Shown: piece by piece, positions 11,183 through 62,688 of the stretch
Numbering within the stretch: the stretch's first letter is position 1
Layout: every line of letters starts with the position of its first letter
NCBI GenBank assembly: GCA_041651115.1
Contig: JBAZJY010000001.1
Location: 5,165 to 69,164 of the forward strand
Source of the DNA: Candidatus Omnitrophota bacterium
GTDB taxonomy: Bacteria; Omnitrophota; Gorgyraeia; Gygaellales; Profunditerraquicolaceae
DNA: 64,000 bases
Direction of reading: 5' to 3'
Translations under genes and position numbers: made by a program
The notes under the pieces: model-generated
Seen by the model: the letters and a program-made list of their open reading frames with translations, nothing else
Database searches by the model: none
What the model was told of the DNA's origin: nothing

Positions 11183-11454
11183 TGGACTGGAAAATATTTT
11201 TTGCGACTTTCGGAGCGATATTTTTCGCTGAACTGGCGGATAAAACTCAACTCGTGGGTATCGGGATGTCTGCGAAGACAGGCAAGGCTGTTAATGTCTG
11301 GATGGGTTCAGTGGCAGCCTATATGGTGGTAACCGCTATTTCAGTCATTATCGGCTTAATTGCCGGTAGCTTCCTTAAGCCGGAATTGATCAAGATCTGC
11401 GGCGGAACGCTGTTTATCGTAATGGGCATCTTAATGCTCGCAGGTAAGCTTTAA
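11182..11454 (+). CDS. Single-repeat UPF0016 (Gdt1/TMEM165/MneA-like) cation transporter half-protein.
   Basis: 90 aa with 3 TM helices. ELADKTQL matches the family E-x-G-D-(K/R)-(T/S) motif with A in place of G. Confidence 0.45.
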   Translation: MDWKIFFATFGAIFFAELADKTQLVGIGMSAKTGKAVNVWMGSVAAYMVVTAISVIIGLIAGSFLKPELIKICGGTLFIVMGILMLAGKL

Positions 11455-11456
11455 TA

Positions 11457-11522
11457 AATAGGGACAGAGACTACTTTTTTACGAAAGATAACTAAGAAAA
11501 AGTAGTCTCTGTCCCTATTTAT
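11457..11522. terminator. Bidirectional rho-independent terminator between convergent genes.
   Basis: Near-perfect 24-bp inverted repeat aaatagggacagagactacttttt / aaaaagtagtctctgtccctattt with A/T runs on both sides. It overlaps the stop of the minus-strand gene. Confidence 0.85.
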
Positions 11523-14275
11523 TTTAGGATTATTTCAATGCGGTTTAAAGGTTTGTTGGCGAGCCGGAGAAAATCCCTGCGCCGGATCACATAGCGTCCG
11601 GCGTTCAATCCTGCTGCAATAGTTTTTCCGTTAAAGCGGATGTTTTGGATCAAATGCTTTCCGCAATCTTTTTTCCCACGGTTTATGAATATCGCTTCAA
11701 TCTTTCTCGCGCAAAAATTTGTGGTTATGCCGGCAATGCCCTTTGCGCTGAATTGCGCCCTAGCCAATTTCGGCTCGATCAATAAGTCTCCGTATTCTCC
11801 CCGCAACCCAAAGGCCTGCGTAACCATTGTCAGGATAAACCAGCTGGCTGATCCGGTAAGATAACTGTACATGCCTCTGCCCTGGCTGTTGAAATATTCC
11901 GGCAAGCAGGGATAGATCTTGCTCTGCCGGGAATTTACTGCCATACGGTATATTGAATCCATAACTACGTATGCTTCGTTACTAAAGCCTCTTTTATACA
12001 GCGCGTAAGCGAACATCACGCACATATGGTTAAAGAACGCGCCGTTCTCCTTCTCTCCGTAAGCAAAAGAAAACGCCCTGCCCAAAGCATACTGCTCATC
12101 TTTAAAATCCGTATTCAGGCGGAATCCGCCGAGCTGTTTATGCTGAAGGTATTTACGGCAGCTCTTGAATAACGTTTTAACCTGTCCTGCCGCGGCAATG
12201 CCGCTCATCACTGCAAAAACCTGCCCGGTCAAGGTCATGCGCAGTCGCCCGCCCGTCGTTCCTTCTACCCGGCGTTTGTTGTTATCGTAATAGCCGTTGA
12301 AAAATCCTTCTTTCAGCCATTCGGTTTTTCTGATGTGGCTGGAGATCCAATCCGCTTTTCTCTTTAAGTCGTTCACCAGCTTGTCTGCGGGGACATTGAT
12401 CAATTTTCCGCTGACTTCTGTTTTAACGGCGCTAAAATATTTTTCAAGGAGAGAAAGCTTTTGTTTAATACTGGAATAATCAATGGGCTTGCGGCTTGTT
12501 GAATCAAGCAGGATGGCGATTTCTTTAAGCAGGGGAATATTCTTCAGCCCCGTTTTTTCTATTATTTCGCATAAGCTGTTCAAGTTTTGCGCGTACATCG
12601 CGCTGAAGGCCACGCTTTCGCCGTTTTCGCTTGCCATATCCAGGCCGTCGTTCCAGTCCGCGCCTTCCAGCCTGATGTGGTTATGCGGCCCGACGTTAAA
12701 AAACTGTACGAGGTTTTGCGCAAGGATATGTTCAAGCACTGTGCCGGAATAAATTTTTCCGGATTTAGTTTTCAGCTGTTTGCCGTAGTTTTCCGACCAC
12801 GCGGGGTCTTTTTCCCTGCCGCGGCTAAGCTGGCAATCACGGAAATAAGCGATTTTTTCAAAAAGAACTTTCAGGTCCGATGTTTGGTGGACGTATAAAA
12901 GCGTGGTGATCAGCGGCCAAACGCCGTGGTCCATCCATACGCGGGGGATATTATTGCGGTCGGCAATAAATTCTCCGGGTTTTGCGCCGATGATCGTGGC
13001 ATTAGAGCCGTCAATCCTGACGCCCCGGAAATTATTGATTAAAAGCGGCCGCACTTCTTTGGGGTCATGCAAAATAAGAGAAAGGCAATCCTGCCATAAG
13101 TCCCGCCAGCCCCTGCCGCCTTTGCCGTAATCAAAATCCGGCAGGAAAGAGCAGCCGTATATCTTGCGTAGCGTCGGCTGCGTATTTACCCAGCGGAACC
13201 AGTTGTTAAAATCAGCGTCGGAAAAAGCAATTGAATTGCTGCTGCTGATCTTTTGCCAATAAGCCTTGGTTTTATTCAAGGCAGCAATAGCCTTTTGCTC
13301 TGAATTGAATTTTTTAAATATTGTAAGCGCGCTGTTTTTTCCTTCGGTTATGCCCATGACAATGATATAGGAGCAGGTTTGGCCGGGCTTGAGCAGTTTA
13401 GTTTTAAACCTTAGCCCTGCCATCGGCTCTTTGCCTTGCGGATTAAGGTTTTTATCCGGGAGGAGATTTTTAAATACGGCGGCCGGCGCTTCCAGGTCAG
13501 AGCCTTCTCCGCAGAATTCTTCTTGCGTGGGATAAATATATTGCGGCGCAAGAGACCTGTCTTCCGCGCCGAAGACAAAATAAGAAGCCGCATTCTTCTT
13601 ATGGCCAGATTCGTCAAACAGCAGGGTGGGGGTTACGATTACGCCATTCTTAGCGATCGCTACCCGGCTTAAGAGCGAAGTTACGTGGCGGTGGTCATGC
13701 AAGTTGGCAGCTGACCTGCCGTAAATAGGGACTGCCGCCGTCGGCGTAAAAGTGATTTTTTTAGAAGAGGTGTTCGTTATTTTAACGAGCATGATTTCAA
13801 CCGGCTCTGCGCCTGACGGCACAAAAGAAGTGATCTGCGCCCTTAGCCCGGTTTGTTTGTTTTCCCGGGTAACTGCCTGCCAGAGCAGGCCTGCTTCCAA
13901 TTGGAAGTTATCACGTTCTAATGCGGCATTATCTTTTGACACGCCGCCGGCTGACCAGACTTTTTCGGGGCTTATGTATATCCAGAAATTGCGGCTGGAC
14001 CTTAAATTGCCCAGCCTTGCGCGTGAAGCAGGTTCCAGCAGGAAAGAATTAAAATTGACTTTTATGTCTCCGTGCAGGTCAGGGGTGATGGATGACATGA
14101 ATGGCAGGCTGTTGCAGAGGGGAAAGTAGAGGGTATTGATATCGCGGGCGTTTTCCGAGATAAATGACCCGTCGTTATCGGTAAAATTCCAAAGCGGCTT
14201 ATCCATAGGCTCTAAATTTATCACAGCCGTCTGCCTTTTGCAAGCCTTTTTCACCCATTGCCCGAAACGCTGCAC
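11519..14275 (-). CDS. GH94-family (cellobiose/chitobiose phosphorylase-like) glycoside phosphorylase.
   Basis: 918 aa. The conserved catalytic-acid region GADWNDGLDM matches the GH94 DWND motif, and the N-terminal region resembles a GH94 N-terminal beta-sandwich. Confidence 0.55.
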   Translation of the reverse strand: MQRFGQWVKKACKRQTAVINLEPMDKPLWNFTDNDGSFISENARDINTLYFPLCNSLPFMSSITPDLHGDIKVNFNSFLLEPASRARLGNLRSSRNFWIYISPEKVWSAGGVSKDNAALERDNFQLEAGLLWQAVTRENKQTGLRAQITSFVPSGAEPVEIMLVKITNTSSKKITFTPTAAVPIYGRSAANLHDHRHVTSLLSRVAIAKNGVIVTPTLLFDESGHKKNAASYFVFGAEDRSLAPQYIYPTQEEFCGEGSDLEAPAAVFKNLLPDKNLNPQGKEPMAGLRFKTKLLKPGQTCSYIIVMGITEGKNSALTIFKKFNSEQKAIAALNKTKAYWQKISSSNSIAFSDADFNNWFRWVNTQPTLRKIYGCSFLPDFDYGKGGRGWRDLWQDCLSLILHDPKEVRPLLINNFRGVRIDGSNATIIGAKPGEFIADRNNIPRVWMDHGVWPLITTLLYVHQTSDLKVLFEKIAYFRDCQLSRGREKDPAWSENYGKQLKTKSGKIYSGTVLEHILAQNLVQFFNVGPHNHIRLEGADWNDGLDMASENGESVAFSAMYAQNLNSLCEIIEKTGLKNIPLLKEIAILLDSTSRKPIDYSSIKQKLSLLEKYFSAVKTEVSGKLINVPADKLVNDLKRKADWISSHIRKTEWLKEGFFNGYYDNNKRRVEGTTGGRLRMTLTGQVFAVMSGIAAAGQVKTLFKSCRKYLQHKQLGGFRLNTDFKDEQYALGRAFSFAYGEKENGAFFNHMCVMFAYALYKRGFSNEAYVVMDSIYRMAVNSRQSKIYPCLPEYFNSQGRGMYSYLTGSASWFILTMVTQAFGLRGEYGDLLIEPKLARAQFSAKGIAGITTNFCARKIEAIFINRGKKDCGKHLIQNIRFNGKTIAAGLNAGRYVIRRRDFLRLANKPLNRIEIILK

Positions 14276-14284
14276 TTGTTAATT

Positions 14285-14724
14285 GAACCTGCCGGCTCTT
14301 TTCGCGTCGTGTGCCGTTTCCTTACCGTAGGCGGAGGACGCCAAAGGTCTTTCGTGAGCTCGGCGGCTGCGGAACTCGCCCGTCGGCGCTTACGCGCCAG
14401 GACGGGCTCAAACATCCTCGCCGTCCGAACCTTTTCACGTTCGGATTCCCTCGCTCCCGAAAGCTGCTTTGGCTAAACGGCACAAACTCCGCTTAAAGAG
14501 CGTCAGGTTCATTTACGAGCGGAACGCTATGCTTATGCGAAGGGCTTTGTGAGCGCGCATTGCAAACTTTTGCCAATTTCACTTTTAGAGATAGGCCGGC
14601 AAGGGCTTACGGCGAGCGGAAGCCCTAATGTTACGAAAGTATGCTTGAGAGCGAGCCGTAAACCGTAGCCGACGGCAAGATGTTTGCAGCGCGCGAGCAA
14701 AGCCCTGAAGCATAAAGCATAGCG
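14285..14724. repeat. GC-rich structured intergenic repeat: module A (14285-14520) plus a long imperfect hairpin (14525-14724).
   Basis: 14285-14520 is about 75% identical to 59342-59590 (gaacctg..ttcttttcgc..gtgtgccgttt, tctttcg..cggcgg..gaactcgc, cggattccc..gctttggctaaacggc.caaac..cgct.aaaga..c..cag.ttcattta). 14525-14558 pairs with 14689-14724. Local GC exceeds 55%. Confidence 0.7.
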
Positions 14725-14822
14725 ATTCATTAAGTTGGTAAATGAAAAAATACGATTGCCTGGCGGGTTTCTGTGATATAATAATGCATTATTTCCTCAC
14801 GGTTGCTTCCGGTTAACTTATT

Positions 14823-15500
14823 ATGAAGAAAAGGCTTAAGTTCAATTATAAAGCGATAATTTTTGACATGGACGGCGTAATTACCAACACTATGCCGTAT
14901 CATTTTGATGCCTGGCTGAGCGTATTTAAAAGCGCGGGAATTAAGGTAAGCTGTTATGATGTTTACGAGCGGGAAGGCCAGGACGGCTTTACGACGATAA
15001 AAGAGCTTTTCCGCAAGCATAAGATAGCTTTTAGCGTAGATAAAGCAAAGCGCCTGCTGCGGCGTAAAGAAGAGTTATTTAAAAAAACCGTAAAGATAAG
15101 GTTTATCAAGGGCAGCAGGCCGTTTATAAGGAAGCTAAAGAGCCGCGGATTGAGGCTGGGTTTAGTTACCGGCACATCGCGGCATGAGATGGAAAAGATC
15201 CTGCCGCTATCATTGCGCAGGTTTTTTGAGGTGATCGTTACCGGCGATGAAGTCTGGAAAGGAAAGCCGCATCCCGAGCCGTTCTTAAAAGCGGTAAAAG
15301 CGCTGCGGCTGAAGCCGCAAGAGATCATGGTCATTGAGAACGCGCCGTTTGGCATCCGCTCGGCAAAAAATGCCGGCTTGTTTTGCGCCGCGCTTGAGAC
15401 CTCTCTGCCCAAAAAATATCTTTTGGCGGCAGACATAATTTTTAGTTCTTTTAAAGAATTAGGCAAGGCAGTTTTTGAAGAAAGAGAGCAGGCAGGATGA
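14823..15500 (+). CDS. HAD-superfamily hydrolase, beta-phosphoglucomutase-like.
   Basis: IIFDMDGVITNT (motif I), LVTGTSR (motif II) and the ENAPFGIRSAKNAG region (motifs III/IV). Confidence 0.8.
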   Translation: MKKRLKFNYKAIIFDMDGVITNTMPYHFDAWLSVFKSAGIKVSCYDVYEREGQDGFTTIKELFRKHKIAFSVDKAKRLLRRKEELFKKTVKIRFIKGSRPFIRKLKSRGLRLGLVTGTSRHEMEKILPLSLRRFFEVIVTGDEVWKGKPHPEPFLKAVKALRLKPQEIMVIENAPFGIRSAKNAGLFCAALETSLPKKYLLAADIIFSSFKELGKAVFEEREQAG

Positions 15501-22718: not shown

Positions 22719-24374
22719 GTGGTCGCAGGAAAAATCAACTCTCTGGACATCATCAAGGGCATAGGCGCGGGGCTCTGCCTCCTGGATAAGAACCTGCGCA
22801 TTGTTTGGGTCAATAAATGCCAGGCAGAATGGTTTGGCGAGCTTGATGATATCCGCGGCAAGCACTGCTATAAGTTATTTGAACACCGTAATCATCCCTG
22901 CCGGGGCTGCCCGGCCTTAAAGGTTTTTAAGGATGGAAAAGTGCATAAAGCCGTAAGGATCGGCAAAAAGATCGACGGGACCAGCCAACACGCGCAATTG
23001 ACTGTCAGCCCGATCAAAGATAACCGTAATCGCGTAGAATACGCGCTTGAGGTCATACAGGATATCAGCGAGCAGGTCGAACGGGAAAGAAAGAGCAACC
23101 GGATGACGCGTAAATTACAGCGCATCCAGCACCGCTTGTCCGGGGCAAACCGCAGGCTGCATAACAGCATCTTGCGCCTCAAGGAGATCACCAGGGACGA
23201 GCTGCAGCATAATCACCTCCTGCATAAAAAATACCTGCAGAGTAAAGACAGACTGGATACCGTAAAGAAAGAGCTGCAGGATATTTTTAAAGTTAACCGC
23301 ACGATTTCCGCTTCAGCCGACGCCGAAAAGACCTTTTCCATGATCACGCGTTCAATCTGCGAGCTGATGAATACGGATTGCTGCGTGCTGCGCATTATTG
23401 ATGAAGAAAAAAAAGCGCTGACCGCGGCTGCCAGTTACGGCATACACAACGGCCTCAAAAGAAATCTCTTGGACGTCAAACTCGGAGACGGGATAAGCGG
23501 CAGGGCGGCGTTGGCGCGCAAGCCCGTAGTGATCAATGACCTGGGCAGGAAATCCGGGGTAAAATATCGCGACAAGAACGCGCGCGCTAAATACCGGGAA
23601 TTGGCGCAAAGCTTAGGCTTGCAGTCAATGATTTCCGTGCCGGTGATCTTTGACGGAAAAATGCTCGGCGTGATCTCAACCTATTCGCGCCGGAACCGCT
23701 GTTTTGAAGATGACGAAGTCAGGGTTTTGAGCATCTTCGCTTCGCAGATCGCCATCGCCATGCATGAATCAAAGCATTTTGAAGAGATCCATCAGAATTA
23801 TTTCAATACCATACATGCGCTGGTGCGCGCCATTGAAGCGCGCGACCCTTATACGCGCGGCCACACCGAAAGGGTAACAAAATACGCGGTTGAATTCGGC
23901 CGCAGCCTTAAATTGCCGGAATCCCAGATCGAGATCCTGCGCTATGCCAGCGAAGTGCACGACGTGGGAAAGATCAGCATCCCGGATTTTATCCTGAACA
24001 AACCCGGTAAGCTTACTCCTTCGGAAAGGGCAATGATCGAGCTGCATCCGGTAAAGGGCGCGGAAATGCTTGAGCCGTTGGAATTCCTTAACCCGGCAAT
24101 ACCGATCGTGCGCCACCATCATGAGCGCTACGACGGCACCGGCTATCCGGATGGATTGGAAAAAGACGATATCCCGCTTTTATCGCGCATCCTTGCCTGC
24201 GCAGATTCTTTTGACGCGATGACTTCCGAACGCCCGTACCGCAGGAGAAAGCTCAATATTGAGCAGGCGATCATGGAAATCAAGAATAACTTCGGCTCGC
24301 AATTTGACCCACGCATTGCCCAGCGTTTTATCAGGACGCTGCGCGCTCACCCCGTTTTCAAAGCCCTTAATTAA
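22719..24374 (+). CDS. PAS/GAF-domain HD-GYP c-di-GMP phosphodiesterase.
   Basis: GTG start with AAGAGG RBS. Coiled coil, GAF-like region, HD domain (...HDVGKI...) and the HHERYDGTGYPDGL (HD-GYP) motif. Confidence 0.85.
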   Translation: MVAGKINSLDIIKGIGAGLCLLDKNLRIVWVNKCQAEWFGELDDIRGKHCYKLFEHRNHPCRGCPALKVFKDGKVHKAVRIGKKIDGTSQHAQLTVSPIKDNRNRVEYALEVIQDISEQVERERKSNRMTRKLQRIQHRLSGANRRLHNSILRLKEITRDELQHNHLLHKKYLQSKDRLDTVKKELQDIFKVNRTISASADAEKTFSMITRSICELMNTDCCVLRIIDEEKKALTAAASYGIHNGLKRNLLDVKLGDGISGRAALARKPVVINDLGRKSGVKYRDKNARAKYRELAQSLGLQSMISVPVIFDGKMLGVISTYSRRNRCFEDDEVRVLSIFASQIAIAMHESKHFEEIHQNYFNTIHALVRAIEARDPYTRGHTERVTKYAVEFGRSLKLPESQIEILRYASEVHDVGKISIPDFILNKPGKLTPSERAMIELHPVKGAEMLEPLEFLNPAIPIVRHHHERYDGTGYPDGLEKDDIPLLSRILACADSFDAMTSERPYRRRKLNIEQAIMEIKNNFGSQFDPRIAQRFIRTLRAHPVFKALN

Positions 24375-40734: not shown

Positions 40735-41361
40735 ATGGGAGCTTTAATACCGTTAATATTCTTACTCATTATCGCCGGTTTCTATTCTTTCATTGCTTTG
40801 ATCTGGTGGAAGATCTTTAAGAAAACCGGGTTCCATCCGGCGCTGGGAATTTTAATGCTCGTTCCTTTCCTTAATCTTGTTATGCTGGCATTCCTGGCAT
40901 TCAGGGAATGGCCGGTGCGCGAAAAATTATCGCATTACAGCGCTAGCGGAGTTATCCCTCAAAAGTCGCTGGCTATGCCGCTGATTGTGGCGATCGTTTT
41001 TGCTGCGGTTATACCGGTAACGCTCTTATTTATTGCGATCGCGGTGCCGAATTTTATGCGCGCCAAGTTAATCGCGAATGAAGCTATGGCGCAGGCCGTG
41101 GTAAAAAACGTATCTCAGGCAGTAGAAGATTATGCTTCCGCAAATAACGGTGTTTATCCGACGAATGAAGTTACCTTGAAATATCCGGTTGGGTCTGAAG
41201 TGTCGTATGACGATAAGACGATTGAAGGGTACAGCTATTCGGTGAATTTGCGCCAGGATGGTTATGAAGTGGCGGCAAGCCCTGAAAAATGCGGGGTTAC
41301 CGGTTTTAACGTGTTTTTGGCGGAAACAGGCGGCAAGTTAGCAGCCAAAGACTGCCGGTAG
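40735..41361 (+). CDS. Membrane protein with a C-terminal type IV pilin-like domain fused to an N-terminal 2-TM domain; no prepilin cleavage motif.
   Basis: Two N-terminal TM helices; an internal hydrophobic helix AIAVPNFMRAKLIANEAMAQ... resembling the pilin N-terminal helix; a C-terminal Cys pair (EKCG...KDC). Flanked by direct repeats tagg.a.cGTCCCTAACGTT at 40698-40717 and 41370-41389. Homology is untested. Confidence 0.6.
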   Translation: MGALIPLIFLLIIAGFYSFIALIWWKIFKKTGFHPALGILMLVPFLNLVMLAFLAFREWPVREKLSHYSASGVIPQKSLAMPLIVAIVFAAVIPVTLLFIAIAVPNFMRAKLIANEAMAQAVVKNVSQAVEDYASANNGVYPTNEVTLKYPVGSEVSYDDKTIEGYSYSVNLRQDGYEVAASPEKCGVTGFNVFLAETGGKLAAKDCR

Positions 41362-41400
41362 GGCTTTGTAGGGACTGTCCCTAACGTTCTTTCATAATTT

Positions 41401-41545
41401 TGCGTCTGTCTTGTGTGGTTTCTCGCGGGGACGCTCGCTCCGCCCCTGCGAGGCGGAGCATCGCTCGTGAGTCGGCTTTCGCTCTGCCCTAACGTAAGTG
41501 AGGGCATCCTTGCCCGCTCAAGCCTCCTACGCCCCGCTCAAAACC
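41401..41545 (-). repeat. GC-rich structured intergenic repeat, module B (inverted copy of 59628-59766).
   Basis: The reverse complement aligns at about 85% with 59628-59766. It includes a GCTCCGCC-n7-GGCGGAGC hairpin that in the other copy reads GTCCCGCC-n7-GGCGGGAC (compensatory changes). Confidence 0.75.
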
Positions 41546-41650
41546 ACCACAAGCCTACCGCAAAATTGATAAACGTGCGCTTCGAACAAAAACCGTAAAT
41601 TTTAAATAATATGCGCTTCCGAAATTATTCGTAAACTTGTAGTTGAAATT

Positions 41651-42205
41651 ATGAAAAATCCAGATTTTAATGTAGAAAACGATAAGATATTCAAATATTT
41701 TGTAGAGCAAATGGGCCCAGCTAATTATGAAATATTTAATTCTGAAGAACCAATGCCATTTGTAGTGGCACAGCCTCCTTATAGAGGATTCTATACTTGT
41801 ATTTCGACTAGTGCGACTATTGACATTAAAACAGTTTCCTATCGGAATCTCGAACTTGCCCCTGATGCTCCCGTAGTTGTAATGCGCAATATGAGATATT
41901 GCGATCACAACGACAAGCCACATCTTAATTCAGATGATACCGTATTTTTTGCGCATAAAAGTGGTCGAATCGGAAGAGTGGTAAGAAAAGACGCAGAAGA
42001 TCACTATAAAGAAATTGCTAAAATTGGGGGGCTAGAACATATTGCAGAGGCGTTTCATTTACCTAAAGAAACGAGTGGGCCAATAAGCCAATATGTTGAA
42101 AATGGAGCCTCAGTTCCTATCAGAATTGATTGTCCACCTAAAGATAAAATTGCTTTTATAGTAGATTTAACAAAGAAAAGTTTTAAGGTGGTGCGAAAAG
42201 AGTAG
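41651..42205 (+). CDS. Hypothetical protein in an AT-rich, compositionally foreign islet.
   Basis: 184-aa ORF with GC near 36% against about 50% for the surrounding genes, and A/T-ending codon usage. No domain I recognise. Confidence 0.6.
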   Translation: MKNPDFNVENDKIFKYFVEQMGPANYEIFNSEEPMPFVVAQPPYRGFYTCISTSATIDIKTVSYRNLELAPDAPVVVMRNMRYCDHNDKPHLNSDDTVFFAHKSGRIGRVVRKDAEDHYKEIAKIGGLEHIAEAFHLPKETSGPISQYVENGASVPIRIDCPPKDKIAFIVDLTKKSFKVVRKE

Positions 42206-42307
42206 CTTTTTTTGGAATTTCGGGGACGTAATACTTAATTATCGTTTAAGCGGATGGGTTGGGTTGGTTTTTTGAGCAACACAAGCCAGCCGCTTTAGGG
42301 GAAAAAT

Positions 42308-42856
42308 ATGAAAAAGATTGCAGCGTTTTTATGCGTAGTTTTATTAGCAGGGACTGCGTTTGCGGCAGATTTTGTGCTGAAGAGTCCGCAGCTTCAGGAA
42401 GGCGGCCAGCTTGGCATGGAACAGGTATTTGCCGGTTATGGCTGCACCGGTGAGAATATCTCTCCCGCTTTATCGTGGGAAGGCGCGCCTGGCGAAACAA
42501 AAAGTTTTGCCGTTACAGTCTATGACCCGGATGCCCGCAAAGGAAACGGATGGTGGCATTGGGTGATCTTTAATATCCCGGCGGATGTTAACAGTCTCTT
42601 GCAGAATGCCGGTGATCTTGCTTCCGCTTTGGCGCCTAAAGGAAGCGCGCAGGTTAAAAGCGATTCCGGCAAGCCCGGCTATAGCGGAGCATGCCCGCCG
42701 GCAGGGGATAAGCCGCACCGTTATATATTTACCGTCTATGCTTTAGATGTTGAAAAAATGCCTATGGATGAAAATACTTCAGGAGCCGAAGCAGGCCCCA
42801 ATTTAGATCAGCACGCGATCGCAAGGGCAGCGATAACCGTAACTTATTCCAGATGA
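42308..42856 (+). CDS. YbhB/YbcL-family (PEBP/RKIP-like) periplasmic protein.
   Basis: Signal peptide; conserved YDPDAR...WHW...CPP...HRY motifs of the bacterial PEBP family. Confidence 0.8.
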   Translation: MKKIAAFLCVVLLAGTAFAADFVLKSPQLQEGGQLGMEQVFAGYGCTGENISPALSWEGAPGETKSFAVTVYDPDARKGNGWWHWVIFNIPADVNSLLQNAGDLASALAPKGSAQVKSDSGKPGYSGACPPAGDKPHRYIFTVYALDVEKMPMDENTSGAEAGPNLDQHAIARAAITVTYSR

Positions 42857-42888
42857 GAGTAAAATATATCGCGATAGCATTATTGGAC

Positions 42889-42999
42889 GGAATTGGGGAC
42901 GTCCCAAAAGCGGAATTGGGGACGTCCCAAAAGGGGACACCCTAGTTATATTTTAATAGGGTGGTACCTTAAAGGACGTCCCCAGTGACGTCCCCAGTG
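42889..42999. promoter_or_regulatory. Array of palindromic GGGGACGTCCCC motifs with a central CACCCT/AGGGTG inverted repeat.
   Basis: ggaattggggacgtcccaaaag appears twice in tandem (42889-42933). caccct-n14(AT-rich)-agggtg follows, then gacgtccccagt twice (42976-42999), immediately before the ATG at 43001. A half-site cggggacgt is also present at 42224-42233. Confidence 0.55.
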
Positions 43000-43000
43000 A

Positions 43001-43579
43001 ATGAAGCTTATGAAAAGATTAAGGTCGGTTTTATTTATCGCGGTGTTCGGGATTATCGGATTGTGGGCGCAGACTGCTTACGCAAGGGTCTCTTACATGC
43101 CCAGAATATCCAAAGCCGCCGCAGCGTATCCTAATGACAAGTTTGCCGTAGTCGGAAGCCGGATAATGTTTTATGGCGGTATTAGCATACTAGTTCTACT
43201 GTGCATAGGCTTGGCCGTGTTTGCCTATAAACTAATACCCAAAACAGAAAAAATCAGGACCTGTCCGGTAGAAGAATTTGTTCACGCCAGGCAGATAGCT
43301 ATTTATTTGCCGCGCAGCAATGATATTATCCTGAAACCGGGCTCTAAGTATTTTACTGAACTGATCAATAATTTTACCGGCGATAAAAAGGCAGCTTCCG
43401 ACGATGACAGGTACAGCGATAAGCTTTTTCTAAAAATAAAAAACAGGCGTTACGCAATTGAGGCATCTCTGGACGGCTGGAATTTTGAAGGAGAACTGCG
43501 GAATTCCCGCGTCTTAAGCAACCCTTTAGAGGTAAGAAAAATCATTGATTCCCTCAAAGAAGAGTATTTAAAGAAATAG
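43001..43579 (+). CDS. Hypothetical membrane-anchored protein.
   Basis: ORF with an N-terminal signal/anchor and a second TM helix; no recognisable domain. The ATG at 43010 is an alternative start. Confidence 0.6.
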   Translation: MKLMKRLRSVLFIAVFGIIGLWAQTAYARVSYMPRISKAAAAYPNDKFAVVGSRIMFYGGISILVLLCIGLAVFAYKLIPKTEKIRTCPVEEFVHARQIAIYLPRSNDIILKPGSKYFTELINNFTGDKKAASDDDRYSDKLFLKIKNRRYAIEASLDGWNFEGELRNSRVLSNPLEVRKIIDSLKEEYLKK

Positions 43580-43599
43580 GAAGATCGTTAGAATAAAAA

Positions 43600-44115
43600 A
43601 TGAAAGCGAAGTATTTAGGAATAACGTTATTAATAAGCGTAATGCTTTTACCGGCTGCTGCCTTGGCGATTGATACGGCTGACTGGCAAATATATAAGAA
43701 TGAAGTTTACGGATACGAGATCAAGTATCCGCTTATTCACGCTTACCTGCCGCTGGAACTTCGCCCGGTTGGCGGTGAAAAAGACGGCCGGGAAATCAAG
43801 GTATGCTTTGCAGAAACCTCTGTTCACCACGGCATAGTTGTTAAGGTGTATCCCGGCAAAAAAATAAGCAAGATCGCTTCAATAGAAGGGATCAAGGCGC
43901 CTTCTTTTAGGGATATAAAAGACGGCCTTCCAATAGCGCATAACTGGAGCATCACGAAAGTTAACTCACGGGATGCCATAAAGCATCGAGGAGATGTTGT
44001 TATTACCATTATTACCAACGGCGCCGTATTTTATATCTATCCGTGGTATAATTTCAGCGAGTTCTTTGCCGAGGACGTAATTTCTACGTTTAAATTCAAT
44101 GATTTATATGCGTAA
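43600..44115 (+). CDS. Hypothetical secreted protein; paralog of the next gene.
   Basis: Signal peptide. Shares ...YKNEVYGYEIKYP... and the C-terminal FSEFFAEDVISTFKFN with 44099-44665. Confidence 0.65.
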   Translation: MKAKYLGITLLISVMLLPAAALAIDTADWQIYKNEVYGYEIKYPLIHAYLPLELRPVGGEKDGREIKVCFAETSVHHGIVVKVYPGKKISKIASIEGIKAPSFRDIKDGLPIAHNWSITKVNSRDAIKHRGDVVITIITNGAVFYIYPWYNFSEFFAEDVISTFKFNDLYA

Positions 44116-44665
44116 AAAGTATATTACGATAACCTTATTGATCTGCGCGATAGCTTTACCGGCTGCTGCTTTTGCGCAGATCAGCGATGATGTTTCAACC
44201 TGGATAACGTATACGAATGAAGCCTATGGGTATGAGATTAAATATCCCCCTGAAATGGAGCTTATACTTGGCGGCACAGAGTTGGAAATAAACGACCGGG
44301 AATTTGTCATCCGCGTCAAGGAAAGCGATGATGACAGCGGCATATCCGCGCAGCTTTATCCGGGAAAAGATTTAAGCGCGATTGACCCCGGCGGCTTAAC
44401 TCTGCCGTCTTTGATAGATTTAAGAGTAGGTGCGGTGGAATACAAGAAAAAAATAGATAAAGTCGGGGTCTATGCCTATAAATGGAACCTGGTAATGATC
44501 AATGGCCAGGAAGCCATAAAAGGAGAAGTATATTTTGAATCTACGGCTGAAAGAATGGGTATGTTTTTTATAATTGATGAGGCATTCTTCAGCATTGAGC
44601 CGTGGACTGACTTCAGCGAAACACTCGCAGAAGAAATAATCTCAACTTTTAGGTTTAATAGATGA
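44099..44665 (+). CDS. Hypothetical secreted protein; paralog of the previous gene.
   Basis: Signal peptide. ...YTNEAYGYEIKYPPEMEL... and FSETLAEEIISTFRFN. Overlaps its neighbours by 17 nt and 4 nt. Confidence 0.65.
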   Translation: MIYMRKKYITITLLICAIALPAAAFAQISDDVSTWITYTNEAYGYEIKYPPEMELILGGTELEINDREFVIRVKESDDDSGISAQLYPGKDLSAIDPGGLTLPSLIDLRVGAVEYKKKIDKVGVYAYKWNLVMINGQEAIKGEVYFESTAERMGMFFIIDEAFFSIEPWTDFSETLAEEIISTFRFNR

Positions 44666-58941: not shown

Positions 58942-59169
58942 TTAAGCTTTGATCAAAGCGCCTTTTTTAATGCACCTGGTGCAGACGTATACTTTGCGCG
59001 GATGGCCCTTGATCAGGATGCGCATTTTTTGCAGATTAGGCAGAAATTTACGCTTGTTGGCGCGGCTGACCTTAGAGCCGGTGCCGCCTTTTTTCTTGGC
59101 TAAGCCTTTGCGTACAAGAACTTTACCTGCCATGGCACCTTTGCCGCATAACGCACATGCTTTTTTCAT
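58942..59169 (-). CDS. rpmB: 50S ribosomal protein L28.
   Basis: MKKACALCGKG...RKFLPNLQK...C..C matches the L28 pattern. GGAG RBS. I prefer this internal ATG over the longer ORF in the track. Confidence 0.85.
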   Translation of the reverse strand: MKKACALCGKGAMAGKVLVRKGLAKKKGGTGSKVSRANKRKFLPNLQKMRILIKGHPRKVYVCTRCIKKGALIKA

Positions 59170-59246
59170 GAGATTACTCCTTTTAAATATATTAGCGTTG
59201 ATCCCCGGCATCTACTTAAACAAAAAATTCTTGAATATGCCGAGGA

Positions 59247-59330
59247 TAATTCAATCAATAACGTAAGCTAAATAAAGTTATTGATTGAATTAGTATACTT
59301 GAAAATAGGCTATTGTCAAGATACAATAGA
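59247..59330. promoter_or_regulatory. Two palindromes in the rpmB / helicase divergent intergenic region.
   Basis: Perfect 15-bp inverted repeat aattcaatcaataac-n14-gttattgattgaatt (59247-59291). ctattgt-caagat-acaatag palindrome at 59311-59330. Confidence 0.45.
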
Positions 59331-59341
59331 GATAGGTTTAA

Positions 59342-59766
59342 ATGAACCTGTCAGTTCTTTTCGCTCAGTGTGCCGTTTGCCCTAAGATAAATAATGGGCC
59401 GCCAATGATCTTTCGCATTTCGGCGGCGGTGAACTCGCGCCTTTTGCTCTAGCAAAAGTCGCTCGGACATACACCGCCGTCCCGATATTGCCGCCTATTC
59501 AGGCGGCATCGGGATTCCCGAAAGTGCTCAAGCTCCATTGGCTAAACGGCCCAAACTTCGCTCAAAGAATCGACAGATTCATTTATAAGTTAATCGTTAT
59601 GATTTTGCGGCTAACTTGGCTTGCTTTGAGCGGCACGTAGGAGGCTTGAGCGGGCATGGTTGCCCTTACTTACGTTAGGGCAGAGCGAAAGCTGACTTCC
59701 GAGCGAAGTCCCGCCTCGCATGGGCGGGACGAGCGTTGCTGCGAGAAGCAAGGCAAGGCAGACGCA
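59342..59766 (+). repeat. Composite GC-rich structured repeat: module A (59342-59590, similar to 14285-14520) plus module B (59628-59766, similar to the reverse complement of 41401-41545).
   Basis: Direct alignments as described for the other copies. The ORF track reads through it (59656 start), but stop-free translation of a GC-rich repeat is not evidence of coding. Confidence 0.75.
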
Positions 59767-59781
59767 AAATCTCTACTAATA

Positions 59782-62688
59782 ATGGATAAAATATTAGAAG
59801 GATTGAATAAAGAACAAATTGAGGCGGTTACGCATAAGCAGGGGCCGCTTTTGATCATTGCGGGCGCCGGCACCGGAAAAACCACGGTGATCACGCAGCG
59901 TATTGCCTGGTTATTATCCGAAGGCCTGGCCAAGACCGATGAGATCCTGGCGCTTACCTTTACAGATAAGGCAGCCAAAGAAATGCAGGAGCGCGTGGAT
60001 ATCCTTATGCCTTACGGCTATACGGATATCTGGATCTCAACCTTTCATGCCTTTGGCGACCGCATGCTCAGGGAAAACGCCTTAATTGCCGGGCTTAACC
60101 CGGATTTTAAAGTCCTGACCCGTCCTGAAGCAGCGGTATTTTTCCGCGAGCATCTTTTTGAATTTGATCTGTCTTATTTCCGGCCGCTGGCTGACCCCAC
60201 GCGTTTTATTGAAGCGTTAATCTCTTTATTCAGCCGGGCAAAAGACGAAGATATTTCCGCCGAGGAATATGTAAAATACAGCCAGGACCTTTTACTGAAG
60301 GCAAAAGAGCAGCCTGAAGATAAGGCCTTGGAAGAAGAAGCGATTAGCCAGATGGAAATAGCGTCTGCCTACGCAAAATATCAGAGCCTGCTTGCCGCGG
60401 GCGGCCTGGTTGATTTCGGAAACCAGTTTTATCTGGCATTAAACCTTTTGCGCGGGCACCCTTTAGTATTAAAAAATTACCAAAAGCAGTTTAAATATAT
60501 CCTGGTTGATGAATTTCAGGATACCAACTTTGCGCAATTCCAGTTAGTTAAGCTTTTGGCAGGAGAGAACAGGAATATTACGGTTGTTGCCGATGATGAC
60601 CAATGCATCTATCGTTGGAGGGGCGCGGCATACAGCAACGTGCTGAATTTTATTGACGGTTATCCTGATGCCAAAAAGGTAAGTTTGATCCGCAACTACC
60701 GTTCCAGCCAGGCCATTCTTGACAGCGCGTATAAGTTGATCCAGCAGAATAATCCCGAACGTTTTGAAGTTAAGGCAAAGATCAATAAGCAGCTGGTTTC
60801 TTTATCTGGGTCGGGAGCTGCGCCGCAGCATTTGCATTTTGACGCGCATTCTGCCGAAGCTGATAATGTCACCCGGATAATAAAGGGAAAAGTCAAATCG
60901 GGAAAATTCAAATACCGCGATTTCGCGATACTCGTGCGTTCCAATTCCGACAGCCAGCCTTTCTTGCAGGCGCTGAATATGCAGGATATCCCCTGGCAGT
61001 TCAGCGGCAACCAGGGCCTTTATTCGCGCGAAGAAGTAAAACTCTGTATTAATTTCCTGCGCGTAGCGGCAAATCCCTCGGATTCATTAAGCCTGTATTA
61101 TCTGGTAAGTTCAGAGGTGTATCCGCTTGGCCTTTCTGATTTAAGCCTGTGCAGCCATTATGCCAGGCGCAGGAACCTGCCGCTCTACATTATTTTTAGC
61201 AGGCTGACGGAAATCCCGGAATTGGAAAATGTCAGTGAAGAATTCAAGGAAAAAGTAAAGGCAATACTGGCGGATTTAGACAAATTCATGAAGACTGCCC
61301 GCGAAGAAACCACCGGAAGGCTGCTTTATTCATTTCTTACCGATACAGGTTACCTCAAGAAGCTTACCAAGAACCCTAATTTGGAAAATGAAGCCAAGAT
61401 CCAGAACCTGGCCAAATTTTTTAATATTGTGCGCGACTTTGAGCTGGTGGCAAAAGAAGACCGCGTGATCAGTTTTATAAATTACCTCAACCTTTTGATT
61501 GAAGCAGGGGATGACCCGCCGACAGTAGAGGCTGACCTTGACTCTGACGCGGTAAATGTCCTGACCATCCATAGAGCAAAAGGCCTTGAGTTCCGGGTGG
61601 TGTTTTTAGTCAGCCTTGTTGCCGGCCGCTTTCCGCTGCCGCGGCGCAGGCAAACCATTGAGTTGCCGGACAGCCTGATAAAAGAGGTATTACCTTCCGG
61701 GGATTTCCAAACGCAGGAGGAGAGAAGGCTTTTTTACGTAGGTATGACGCGCGCCAAGGAAGAATTATATTTGACCAGCGCCGTGGATTACGGCGGAAAA
61801 CGGATGCGCAAGATAAGCCAGTTTGTGGTTGAAGCGCTGGGGGAAGAAGCTGCTCAACCGCAAAAAAATAAATCAAGCGCCGTGGAAACAATTGAACGCT
61901 TTGCCCCGGTCAAAGAATCCCTGCGCCAGCAAGAGCCAACGGCGGAAGATAAGCTGATAAATTTAAGCTATTACCATATTGATGATTATCTGACCTGCCC
62001 GCTGAAATATAAATACGTGAACGTTCTGCGCGTGCCGATCATGGAGCACCATACGGTAATTTACGGCCGGGCAATGCACGAGGCAGTAAGCAGGTATTTT
62101 CAGTTTAAAATGGCAGGCAGGAAAATAGAGCAGGCAGATGTTTTAAATGCGTTCAGGGAAAGCTTTGATCCGCAGGGGTTTCTTGATAAAAAGCACGAAG
62201 AGGAGCGCTTGCGCGTAGGCAGGGAGGCGCTGGCGCAATTTTTCCAACGGGAAGAGAAACATGGATCTTTGCCGCTATTCATCGAAAAGGAATTTTCTTT
62301 TGTCCTGGAATCTAATAAAATCACCGGCCGCTTTGACCGCGTTGATAAAGAGGAAGACGGCGTGGTGATCATGGATTTCAAGACCTCGGCGATCAAAAAC
62401 CAGAAAGACGCGGATAAGCGGGTTAAAGAAAGCATGCAGCTAAAGCTTTACGCCCTGGCTTACCTGAACATATTCGGCCAGCTGCCTATAAGGCTGGAGC
62501 TTTATTTCCTTGAATCCGGGATCATCGGCAGTACCCGGGTAAAAGACGATGACTTGGAGGAAGTAAAAGAAAGGATCAGAGAGGTTGCCGGCGGCATACG
62601 TAAGCGTAATTTTACGGCAACACCCGCATATATGGCCTGCGCCTATTGCGCCTATAACCAGATCTGTCCGTCTGCGGTAATGAAATGA
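59782..62688 (+). CDS. UvrD/PcrA-family helicase fused to a C-terminal RecB/AddB-like PD-(D/E)xK nuclease with a Cys cluster.
   Basis: Begins MDKILEGLNKEQ. GAGTGKT Walker A, DEFQDTN (motif II), helicase motifs III-VI. The C-terminus carries CPLKYKY...DFK (nuclease core) and CAYCAYNQICP. I chose this start to exclude the upstream repeat. Confidence 0.85.
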   Translation: MDKILEGLNKEQIEAVTHKQGPLLIIAGAGTGKTTVITQRIAWLLSEGLAKTDEILALTFTDKAAKEMQERVDILMPYGYTDIWISTFHAFGDRMLRENALIAGLNPDFKVLTRPEAAVFFREHLFEFDLSYFRPLADPTRFIEALISLFSRAKDEDISAEEYVKYSQDLLLKAKEQPEDKALEEEAISQMEIASAYAKYQSLLAAGGLVDFGNQFYLALNLLRGHPLVLKNYQKQFKYILVDEFQDTNFAQFQLVKLLAGENRNITVVADDDQCIYRWRGAAYSNVLNFIDGYPDAKKVSLIRNYRSSQAILDSAYKLIQQNNPERFEVKAKINKQLVSLSGSGAAPQHLHFDAHSAEADNVTRIIKGKVKSGKFKYRDFAILVRSNSDSQPFLQALNMQDIPWQFSGNQGLYSREEVKLCINFLRVAANPSDSLSLYYLVSSEVYPLGLSDLSLCSHYARRRNLPLYIIFSRLTEIPELENVSEEFKEKVKAILADLDKFMKTAREETTGRLLYSFLTDTGYLKKLTKNPNLENEAKIQNLAKFFNIVRDFELVAKEDRVISFINYLNLLIEAGDDPPTVEADLDSDAVNVLTIHRAKGLEFRVVFLVSLVAGRFPLPRRRQTIELPDSLIKEVLPSGDFQTQEERRLFYVGMTRAKEELYLTSAVDYGGKRMRKISQFVVEALGEEAAQPQKNKSSAVETIERFAPVKESLRQQEPTAEDKLINLSYYHIDDYLTCPLKYKYVNVLRVPIMEHHTVIYGRAMHEAVSRYFQFKMAGRKIEQADVLNAFRESFDPQGFLDKKHEEERLRVGREALAQFFQREEKHGSLPLFIEKEFSFVLESNKITGRFDRVDKEEDGVVIMDFKTSAIKNQKDADKRVKESMQLKLYALAYLNIFGQLPIRLELYFLESGIIGSTRVKDDDLEEVKERIREVAGGIRKRNFTATPAYMACAYCAYNQICPSAVMK

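Follow-up and report, generated by a model that had tools for sequence, protein, structure and literature searches.

In the window analyzed here, a 64,000-nucleotide (nt) stretch of a Candidatus Omnitrophota metagenome-assembled genome, the divergent genes for ribosomal protein L28 (rpmB) and for a UvrD/PcrA-type helicase are separated by an intergenic region that holds two structured repeats, modules A and B. From the rpmB promoter to the helicase ATG, about 450 nt, the order is 20 nt, A, an AT-rich spacer, B and 10 nt (Table 1). The genome is compact, and the three longest non-riboswitch intergenic gaps of the window (14276-14822, 41362-41650 and 59170-59781) all hold such repeats, including a third one, module X. 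A, B and X are three un-annotated, covariation-supported families, absent from Rfam, that are set head-to-head and bracket cargo in Omnitrophota. Relatives and other loci are labeled below with L-numbers and proteins with P-numbers.

Repeat finding and gapped blastn recovered both repeats that a first-pass annotation of this DNA had described, A with a further copy at 14.3 kb and B with a further copy at 41.4 kb. The two A copies are on the same strand and 66% identical with gaps; the two B copies are 82% identical and inverted, so that the recurrence of B stands with a correction of strand. A and B had been called juxtaposed with about 35 bp between them. They are indeed adjacent, and structure and hidden Markov model boundaries reduce the spacer to about 14 to 16 nt. 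The A copy at 14.3 kb had been taken to stand alone, but X, the counterpart of B, follows after about 8 nt. X contains the basal motifs of B (..GGCTT..TGAGCG / GCGAG..AAGCC..) but not its sequence.

Two palindromes that had been marked upstream are real. One sits in the rpmB leader (Table 1), and the other, at 59311-59330, overlaps the rpmB -35 box and a plus-strand -10-like hexamer. The rpmB 5′ leader (59170-59291, minus strand) is about 120 nt long and contains two hairpins, one of them the first palindrome; it measures only about 20 to 30 nt in L004 and L133. With it, this intergenic region has gained a second addition that is specific to the lineage. The -10 box of a candidate plus-strand promoter lies inside DNA that the relative L004 lacks, and its consensus match indicates that it could transcribe through antisense A, then B, into the helicase gene.

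Table 1. Coordinates of modules, genes and other features in the window.
Feature	Position	Strand	Basis
Module A, ~245 nt, multi-helix junction closed by long P1 helix	59340..59586	- (better-folding strand)	Homology to 14281-14514 and 59 metagenome copies; nhmmer E=3e-53; covariation
AT-rich spacer between 5′ ends of A and B; cargo position in other copies	59587..59600	.	Fold and nhmmer boundaries; cargo-bearing copies
Module B, ~170 nt, three-way junction closed by long P1/P2 stem	59601..59771	+ (better-folding strand)	82% identity to 41396-41567(-), 8 compensatory pairs; family of 13
Second copy of A, short-P6 subtype, beside start of 918-aa minus-strand gene	14281..14514	-	Homology, fold, nhmmer
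Module X, 206 nt, long branched hairpin set 5′-to-5′ with A, in the place of B	14522..14727	+	Fold z=-9.25; family of 8-10 copies
Second copy of B, 5′ end toward orphan open reading frame on its right	41396..41567	-	Repeat search, fold, nhmmer
184-aa AT-rich orphan open reading frame, candidate cargo gene	41651..42205	+	GC 0.37 vs 0.48 for window; no Pfam match
Mini-B, internally deleted: 5′ P1/P2 arm fused to 3′ arm, 55 nt, 5′ end toward orphan open reading frame	42243..42297	+	Weak nhmmer match (B positions 2-36, E=0.16); TTTAAGCGGATGGGTTGG..TTGAGCAACACAAGCCAGCCGCTTTA read directly; assigned by eye
rpmB, ribosomal protein L28, 75 aa, left host gene	58942..59169	-	Translation, Pfam PF00830
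15-bp-arm palindrome in long rpmB 5′ leader, outside A/B element	59247..59291	-	Sequence
Promoter-like site of rpmB, TTGACA-16-TATACT, 11/12 matches	59292..59319	-	Consensus scan; same motif in L004, L006, L133
Candidate plus-strand promoter, TTGAAA-17-TACAAT, 10/12 matches	59299..59327	+	Consensus scan only; comparison with L004
Spurious 42-codon N-terminal extension of helicase open reading frame	59656..59781	+	ATG 59656 placed 11 nt after GGAGG within module B
UvrD/PcrA-type helicase with C-terminal PD-(D/E)XK nuclease domain, 968 aa, true start MDKILEGLNKEQ	59782..62688	+	PcrA alignment from residue 5; 100% match to NCBI protein P0001 (968 aa)

Structure and distribution of modules A, B and X

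All modules fold far better than shuffled sequence (z -5.5 to -10.6). For A at the rpmB-helicase site, the minimum free energy is -120.2 on the minus strand and -107.7 on the plus strand. Differences between the two window copies compensate each other in 9 of 52 pairs of A and in 8 of 56 pairs of B. Metagenomes were scanned for A with a pattern of three junction blocks, GGGAATCC..GGACGGCG..GCGAGTTC (minus strand), that is conserved between the two diverged window copies; it matches the window exactly twice, against no match in 100 shuffles. About two-thirds of the 115 loci listed proved to be full-length A homologues, the remainder being chance matches in GC-rich coding DNA. Together with the window, the matches listed contain at least 61 distinct full-length A sequences.

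The consensus structure of A, derived from 54 sequences, comprises 74 pairs in 11 helices. In it 91.8% of cells are paired, compared with 38 to 47% when partners are slid, and 48 pairs show double changes. The covariation score is 0.287 versus 0.05 to 0.07, and none of 500 shuffles equaled the observed values. Peripheral hairpins P6, P8 and P9 are entirely different between subfamilies, and the two window copies fall in different ones; the junction sequences are nearly invariant. Read by eye, the loops stay within GNRA space (GGAA, GAGA, GTGA, GAAA, GCAA) and tandem G.A motifs (UGAGC/GCGAG) recur. The orientation that matches the window minus strand folds better in 60 of the 61 copies listed, with a mean of -114.8 versus -102.4 kcal/mol. 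G.U (97 cells) and A.C (83 cells) are nearly equally frequent in the helices, which are thus almost purely Watson-Crick with mismatches that look strand neutral; for this reason the strand assignment rests on loops, G.A motifs and folding energy rather than on wobble pairs.

B, with at least 13 copies, and X are families too. Profile searches of loci picked only for holding A yielded 19 B and 10 X matches among the loci listed, and X adjoins A in L215, L133, L191, L158, L183 and L230. Thirteen B sequences show compensatory changes in 30 of 44 consensus pairs, and in every one of them the better-folding strand is the one that corresponds to the plus strand at 59.6 kb; the helices of B contain 29 G.U and 15 A.C cells. 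In X, the same strand folds better in six of eight copies. Further B copies sought via spurious reading frames translated from B were not found. Across these three families of 170 to 245 nt, covariation is as strong as in established ribozymes and riboswitches.

Searches of Rfam 15 gave no counterpart. At the gathering threshold the whole window returned only a cyclic di-GMP-I riboswitch (RF01051; 22406-22565, plus strand; 39.7 bits versus a gathering score of 35), which lies upstream of an open reading frame (ORF) starting at 22719. At E up to 10, regions 59150-59850 and 14200-14830 gave chance-level matches only, none of them on A, B or X, and ten homologous loci (27 kb) gave nothing at E up to 0.1. 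In genome contigs a 16-base A pattern had chance matches alone, with no locus that aligned to A or B. A block of the P3 region, TTGGCTAAACGGCNCAAACTNCGCT, had no match in metagenomes; P3 is atypical in the window copies (GCCGTTT/AAACGGC, where the family norm is NNNNNTTTT/AAAANNNNN). A phage or plasmid origin was rejected, as blastn of the A+B composite against plasmids and phages gave no match and viral-contig scans gave none either. A literature search yielded nothing relevant on Omnitrophota RNA motifs or repeats, and the core sequences were not found as text in the library searched.

Flanking genes tie some loci to Omnitrophota: CysS homologues that are 81 to 82% identical adjoin B in L240 and A in L242. 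A second A-like type occurs in higher-GC contigs (L139, L142, L166, L187, L188, L195, L205, L211, L219). It has the same junction core, a different periphery and flanks of the form TTTTGTGTGG...CCACACAAAA, and several of its copies are near-identical across samples.

Pairing, cargo and turnover

Pairs were counted in the loci fetched for containing A, among the matches listed, plus the window. At 16 loci, both window composites included, B or X occupies the strand opposite to A and begins 3 to 75 nt away from it, with the 5′ ends facing. Five more loci (L237, L184/L221, L157, L155, L156) show the same head-to-head orientation with the modules 347 to 756 nt apart. In all, A and B or X are arranged 5′-to-5′ in 21 of 23 pairs, the exceptions being L154 and L207. 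The arrangement in other copies thus bears out the earlier suggestion that A and B are halves of one modular element.

Each gap of the split pairs is taken up by one ORF of 98 to 235 aa. These ORFs are mutually unrelated and without Pfam match, and their GC content is 0.28 to 0.33 versus 0.41 to 0.46 for the locus. The 33 A copies that lack an adjacent partner are more AT-rich in the 5′ flank, with a GC content of 0.383 there versus 0.445 in the 3′ flank (Wilcoxon p=9e-5). The 3′ ends of the modules abut ordinary housekeeping genes. The general layout is host gene, 3′-module-5′, nothing or an AT-rich orphan gene, 5′-module-3′, host gene. The end modules are interchangeable; on the right, B, X or another B may occur. 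The orphan ORF at 41651-42205 of the window is enclosed by two B ends whose 5′ ends point inward, as the 5′ end of the minus-strand B faces the ORF and the plus-strand mini-B lies beyond it. This B copy, the ORF and the mini-B are all contained in an islet of small ORFs of about 4 kb between cysS and tmk (40735-44665).

Of eight cargo-bearing cases, six have an orphan ORF that reads into a module in the sense orientation. A stretch of 4.7 kb in L168 that looked like cargo consists of housekeeping genes and was left out of the count. Relative to flanking genes, the modules are antisense-tandem at 24, sense-tandem at 13, divergent at 5 and convergent at 3 of the metagenome loci listed, with two more divergent cases in the window; the difference between 24 and 13 is not significant.

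The closest relatives for which DNA is available have an empty site where the window copy lies, that is, between the promoter of rpmB and the start of the helicase gene. In L004 and L005, whose helicase is 78% identical, the rpmB-helicase spacer measures 63 nt versus 612 nt in the window; just 5 nt separate the ATG of the helicase from the -35 box of rpmB, and the rpmB promoter is recognizably the same as that of the window. In L006 the same site is taken up by another insert, about 165 nt long and rich in hairpins (L006:3830-3990); a direct duplication of 27 nt, within which the helicase start codon falls, flanks it. L133, which is the rpmB locus of a further genome, has X and A here, and as in the window 20 nt separate the 3′ end of A from the -35 box of rpmB. 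L28 of L133 is closer to the L28 proteins of L004 and L006, both of which are without the element.

Other sites also vary in content. Between the genes for a 249-aa protein and an amidohydrolase we found A+X (L158), A+ORF235+B (L156) or A+ORF98+B (L237). Upstream of ttcA, A is present in one orientation in three genomes and in the opposite one in a fourth. Downstream of cysS, the occupant is B in L240 and L241, A in L242, degenerate 3′-end remnants in L243 and the 4-kb islet with B in the window. The cysS-tmk spacer of L243 is only 257 nt long, and in it (L243:6390-6645) short remnants resemble the 3′ ends of A (GTGAGAAAATGCGGCAGATTTATTAG) and B (CCCGAGAAAATACAGACAAGACAAATGCGTAA), which suggests decay by internal deletion.

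Other hairpins were noticed as well. Nested hairpins of GGGGACGTCCCC units occur at 42857-43000 and in L243:6390-6430, and TAGGGACnGTCCCTA-type hairpins follow several genes (40689, 41359, 11459-11517); both look like a separate family of short palindromes similar to repetitive extragenic palindromic (REP) sequences or terminators. The "structured gap" at 11251-11518 is mostly the 3′ end of a membrane-protein gene and a terminator.

The helicase start codon

In the ORF list the helicase runs from 59656 to 62688 and has 1010 aa. The ENA gene call on the source contig (ERZ27247363 k141_400606) likewise has 1010 aa, whereas NCBI annotates the same helicase with 968 aa. The first-pass annotation had held that the additional N-terminal residues are spurious and that the conserved N terminus begins at 59782, and both claims hold. 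The 42 codons of the extension fall within B, to which the GGAGG before its ATG also belongs. The B copy at 41.4 kb reads in a frame shifted relative to that at 59.6 kb, and the reading frame is thus not conserved between them.

Alignments with the solved structures of PcrA, UvrD and Rep open at query residues 43 to 50, corresponding to chain residues 3 to 16. In UvrD/PcrA proteins an L..LN..Q motif is expected within about 10 residues of the start, followed by the GxGKT Walker A motif. A start at 59782 places the LxGLNxxQ motif at residue 5, as in PcrA (1QHH/1PJR), and the motif begins at residues 5 to 9 in 107 of 120 helicase homologues. Three of the 120 carry unrelated extensions of 15 to 20 residues, with an internal Met at the consensus position. 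Homologues with the extension found in the window, which would have spoken for it, were looked for among all 120, and its sequence was absent from every one. The true start of the helicase is 59782. The ATG preceded by GGAGG inside B leads gene callers to append 42 false residues.

An in-frame ATG with GGAGG 11 nt upstream and the 1010-aa ENA annotation are what could be cited for a genuine, lineage-specific extension. This is extremely improbable, as the stretch is the repeat itself, whose other copy is in a shifted frame, as no homologue shares it, and as homology to the solved PcrA/UvrD structures opens at M43, in agreement with the 968 aa annotated by NCBI. Some orthologous helicases of about 1333 aa (P0032, P0047, P0048 and others) carry an intein (PF14890, some with Hint domains); the window copy is without one. 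In sum, once coordinates and strands are corrected, the evidence supports what the first-pass annotation observed and the two interpretations that it offered. New relative to it are that the family is widespread, that the two modules fold on opposite strands and that a third module, X, exists.

Interpretation and comparison with known systems

We read the composite at 59340-59771 as a mobile cassette, modular and non-autonomous, of a kind common in Omnitrophota genomes and present here without cargo, and we put the probability of this reading at about one-half. The features behind it are dispersed copies, lack of coding capacity, inverted ends, forms with and without cargo, presence and absence between relatives, reuse of hot spots and swapping of partners. 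Such a cassette would have two unrelated end modules, each folding independently, conserved in structure and closed by its own long terminal helix. A and B are joined 5′-to-5′ by about 15 nt, and hence each 3′ end points outward into host DNA; each module is predicted to fold best on the strand whose 3′ end points outward. The space between the 5′ ends would accept one AT-rich orphan gene or stay empty. The cassette may be mobilized in trans by an enzyme encoded elsewhere in the genome that would recognize the folded single-stranded ends.

No recurrent protein family beyond syntenic neighbors was found within 3.5 kb of 59 A copies, as is expected of a non-autonomous element. The near equality of G.U and A.C in the helices of A suggests that single copies are not purged in a strand-specific manner as functional RNAs usually are. 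At the rpmB site, insertion would have pushed the helicase gene about 450 nt away from the shared promoter region, and the helicase is probably transcribed through antisense A and sense B as a long structured leader. More tentatively, an undescribed cassette-mobilizing system of Omnitrophota may have A, B and X as its folded ends, which face outward and would be three-dimensional domains of 170 to 245 nt (RNA or single-stranded DNA) in place of short repeats bound by protein. In it, any two ends set 5′-to-5′ would delimit a unit able to capture and move AT-rich orphan genes one at a time.

Several points weigh against the cassette. No transposase, recombinase or reverse transcriptase linked to the copies was found within 3.5 kb of the 59 A copies, nor was an autonomous partner seen there. 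We saw no terminal inverted repeat common to both ends; by eye there is only a loose GCGAGAAA..GACA motif near both 3′ ends. The outer ends differ (A ..CAGrTTCATTT versus B ..CCGCTAAA or ..CGCAAAAT), and each module has its own internal inverted repeat, P1. At the 16 composite copies, whose boundaries are known only to within a few nt, no direct repeat is evident that would represent a target-site duplication. TA dinucleotides flank both window copies of A, but they are uninformative on duplication because they also extend the P1 helix. The empty-site relatives are too diverged, with a helicase of 78% identity, to define the exact insertion junction. At orthologous sites, A retains 78 to 92% identity, whereas the four-fold degenerate positions of neighboring genes have reached saturation (28 to 55%); this fits purifying selection per locus, and thus a host function, as well as repeated re-insertion. 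Features that look RNA-like are the GNRA-type loops with their variation inside GNRA space, the tandem G.A motifs and the consistency with which one strand folds better, in 60 of the 61 A copies listed and in 13 of 13 for B. With end domains that are unlike known ones, no terminal repeat or duplication evident and no mobilizing gene found, mobilization is a step that we infer. In L151 (839-2143), an rve-type (DDE) transposase gene lies 286 nt past the 3′ end of one A copy, with a structured segment in between; as a single case it was not treated as linked.

The main rival, less probable but serious, is a function in the host: A and B/X would be structured RNAs that selection maintains locus by locus, for instance as scaffolds for proteins, as insulators or stabilizers of transcripts, or as regulators. 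The head-to-head pairs, and the position of the modules at the borders of AT-rich orphan genes, would then reflect the handling of transcripts that leave or enter acquired genes rather than mobility. The elaborate conserved folds, with near-invariant junctions, GNRA-type loops and tandem G.A motifs, agree with such RNAs, as do the consistent better-folding strand, the conservation of A at orthologous sites where synonymous sites are saturated, and the sense entry of orphan ORFs into a module in six of eight cargo-bearing cases, which is like that of a 3′ untranslated region element. However, we found no promoter at a fixed distance upstream of the A 5′ end, and the 5′ ends of adjacent pairs, at a distance of only 3 to 20 nt, are too close to fit divergent promoters. 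Modules also occur in either orientation to the flanking genes, are present or absent and swap partners at the same site, and contain G.U and A.C at similar frequency, which is atypical of RNAs under selection. A narrower proposal, that the region is a dedicated cis-regulatory leader of the helicase gene or of rpmB (a riboswitch or a ribosomal-protein autoregulatory leader), draws on the divergent position, in which each module is in sense toward the nearest gene, and on L133, where A is also 20 nt from the rpmB -35 box. We regard it as very unlikely: the gene-neighborhood survey contradicts it, in that dozens of unrelated genes have these modules beside them, in either orientation, and close relatives have a 63-nt spacer and no leader at all. 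Moreover, A lies upstream of the rpmB promoter, outside its transcript, and no Rfam match was obtained.

Folded single-strand recombination sites would be a third explanation, the modules acting like the attC sites of an integron-like or other site-specific system and the orphan ORFs being captured cassettes. Consistent with this, structure is conserved above sequence in the peripheral hairpins, the cargo genes are small, AT-rich orphans, the same intergenic hot spots are used recurrently, and at 41 kb the order ORF208, B (folded on the bottom strand), ORF184 resembles ORF-attC-ORF. Sites of the attC type are imperfect palindromes of 57 to 141 bp with R''/L''-L'/R' core sites (RYYYAAC ... GTTRRRY), in co-oriented arrays next to intI. 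The modules, by contrast, are multi-branched units of 170 to 245 nt rather than simple imperfect hairpins of 57 to 141 nt, GTTRRRY/RYYYAAC core sites are not visible by eye at their ends, and copies are scattered singly among housekeeping genes without co-oriented arrays. No integrase gene is present in any neighborhood, and in L155, L156, L157 and L237 it is the 5′ end of the module that adjoins the ORF, rather than the 3′ end. This explanation is therefore improbable, and an identity with integron attC sites was rejected for their size, branching, ends, dispersal and lack of an integrase among the neighbors.

Other identities were rejected as well. The ends of IS200/IS605 elements and palindrome-associated transposable elements (PATEs) need both end hairpins on the same (top) strand, whereas A and B fold best on opposite strands. 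An omega-RNA overlaps or follows tnpB; ORFs of 300 to 420 aa that end beside A had suggested a TnpB omega-RNA, but they encode M48 peptidase, RuvB, MurA, ACR3, IMDH and other proteins. A retron msr-msd has a reverse transcriptase beside it, and its RNA and cDNA-template parts overlap at their 3′ ends; this identity was dismissed because no neighborhood contains a reverse transcriptase and the modules are set 5′-to-5′, not 3′-to-3′. A group II intron was rejected as the identity of A and B, and so was a riboswitch or leader, the downstream genes being unrelated and the modules being absent in relatives.

Omnitrophota are uncultured, very small bacteria with compact genomes, and despite this compactness the modules fill the largest intergenic gaps of the window. 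Either they represent a new type of mobile cassette or they are new large non-coding RNAs, and both possibilities bear on how accessory genes are gained and controlled in reduced genomes. Should the ends act as RNAs, the large structured non-coding RNAs would gain two new classes, present at tens of copies per genome as extrapolated from two A and two B copies in 64 kb. With defined sequence cores now searchable, the question can be tested in existing metagenomes and metatranscriptomes. There is also a practical side, as spurious small ORFs and false start codons, such as that of the 1010-aa helicase carried by ENA, arise from the repeat, and translated repeat fragments made up the largest "protein clusters" of neighboring ORFs. 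A covariance model of A, B and X would clear such errors from Omnitrophota genomes.

Among known structured RNAs, GOLLD, ROOL, HEARO and raiA are all in Rfam, and HEARO is part of a mobile element. The modules share with these RNAs a complex, covariation-supported multi-helix fold, GNRA loops and the lack of a known function. They differ in having no Rfam 15 match and no associated ORF, in being paired on opposite strands and in their probable number of tens of copies per genome. With integron attC sites they have in common a structure conserved above sequence, strand-specific folding and small AT-rich genes that are mostly orphans. BOX elements of Streptococcus pneumoniae (boxA-boxB-boxC) are likewise modular, strongly structured, intergenic and present in many copies, with possible effects on neighbors; however, their modules of 45 to 59 nt lie on one strand, form one hairpin and carry no cargo, and these elements belong to a different phylum and have no sequence relation to A, B or X.

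REP sequences, REPINs and bacterial interspersed mosaic elements (BIMEs) resemble the modules as interspersed extragenic palindromes that form inverted pairs, persist for long with compensatory stems and are mostly not adjacent to the mobilizing gene. BIMEs of proteobacteria combine two different REP types head-to-head. In contrast, REPs are simple, GC-rich hairpins of 20 to 40 nt, units of the same type flank the RAYT gene, and REPINs measure about 100 nt, whereas the modules are 170 to 245 nt long with three- to five-way junctions and have cargo ORFs between pairs. Given the size and branching of the units, the absence of a RAYT (Y1 HUH) gene near any copy and the lack of a recurrent neighboring family, an identity with REPs or REPINs was rejected.

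Miniature inverted-repeat transposable elements (MITEs) and mobile insertion cassettes (MICs) are non-autonomous DNA elements made of two insertion sequence ends, with or without a passenger gene. Like them, the cassette is short, non-coding, multi-copy and intergenic, has cargo-less and cargo-bearing forms with the same inverted ends, and is present or absent between relatives; its copies are dispersed and without a transposase. MITEs and MICs have terminal inverted repeats of 15 to 40 bp, however, whereas the ends of the cassette are multi-helix domains of 170 to 245 nt, usually of different families (A with B or X), and share no terminal inverted repeat. Neither a target-site duplication nor a related insertion sequence with a transposase was seen, and compensatory change preserves the whole fold of the ends, not just their tips. 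With these differences, the copy between rpmB and the helicase gene relates to the cargo-bearing form as a MITE does to a MIC.

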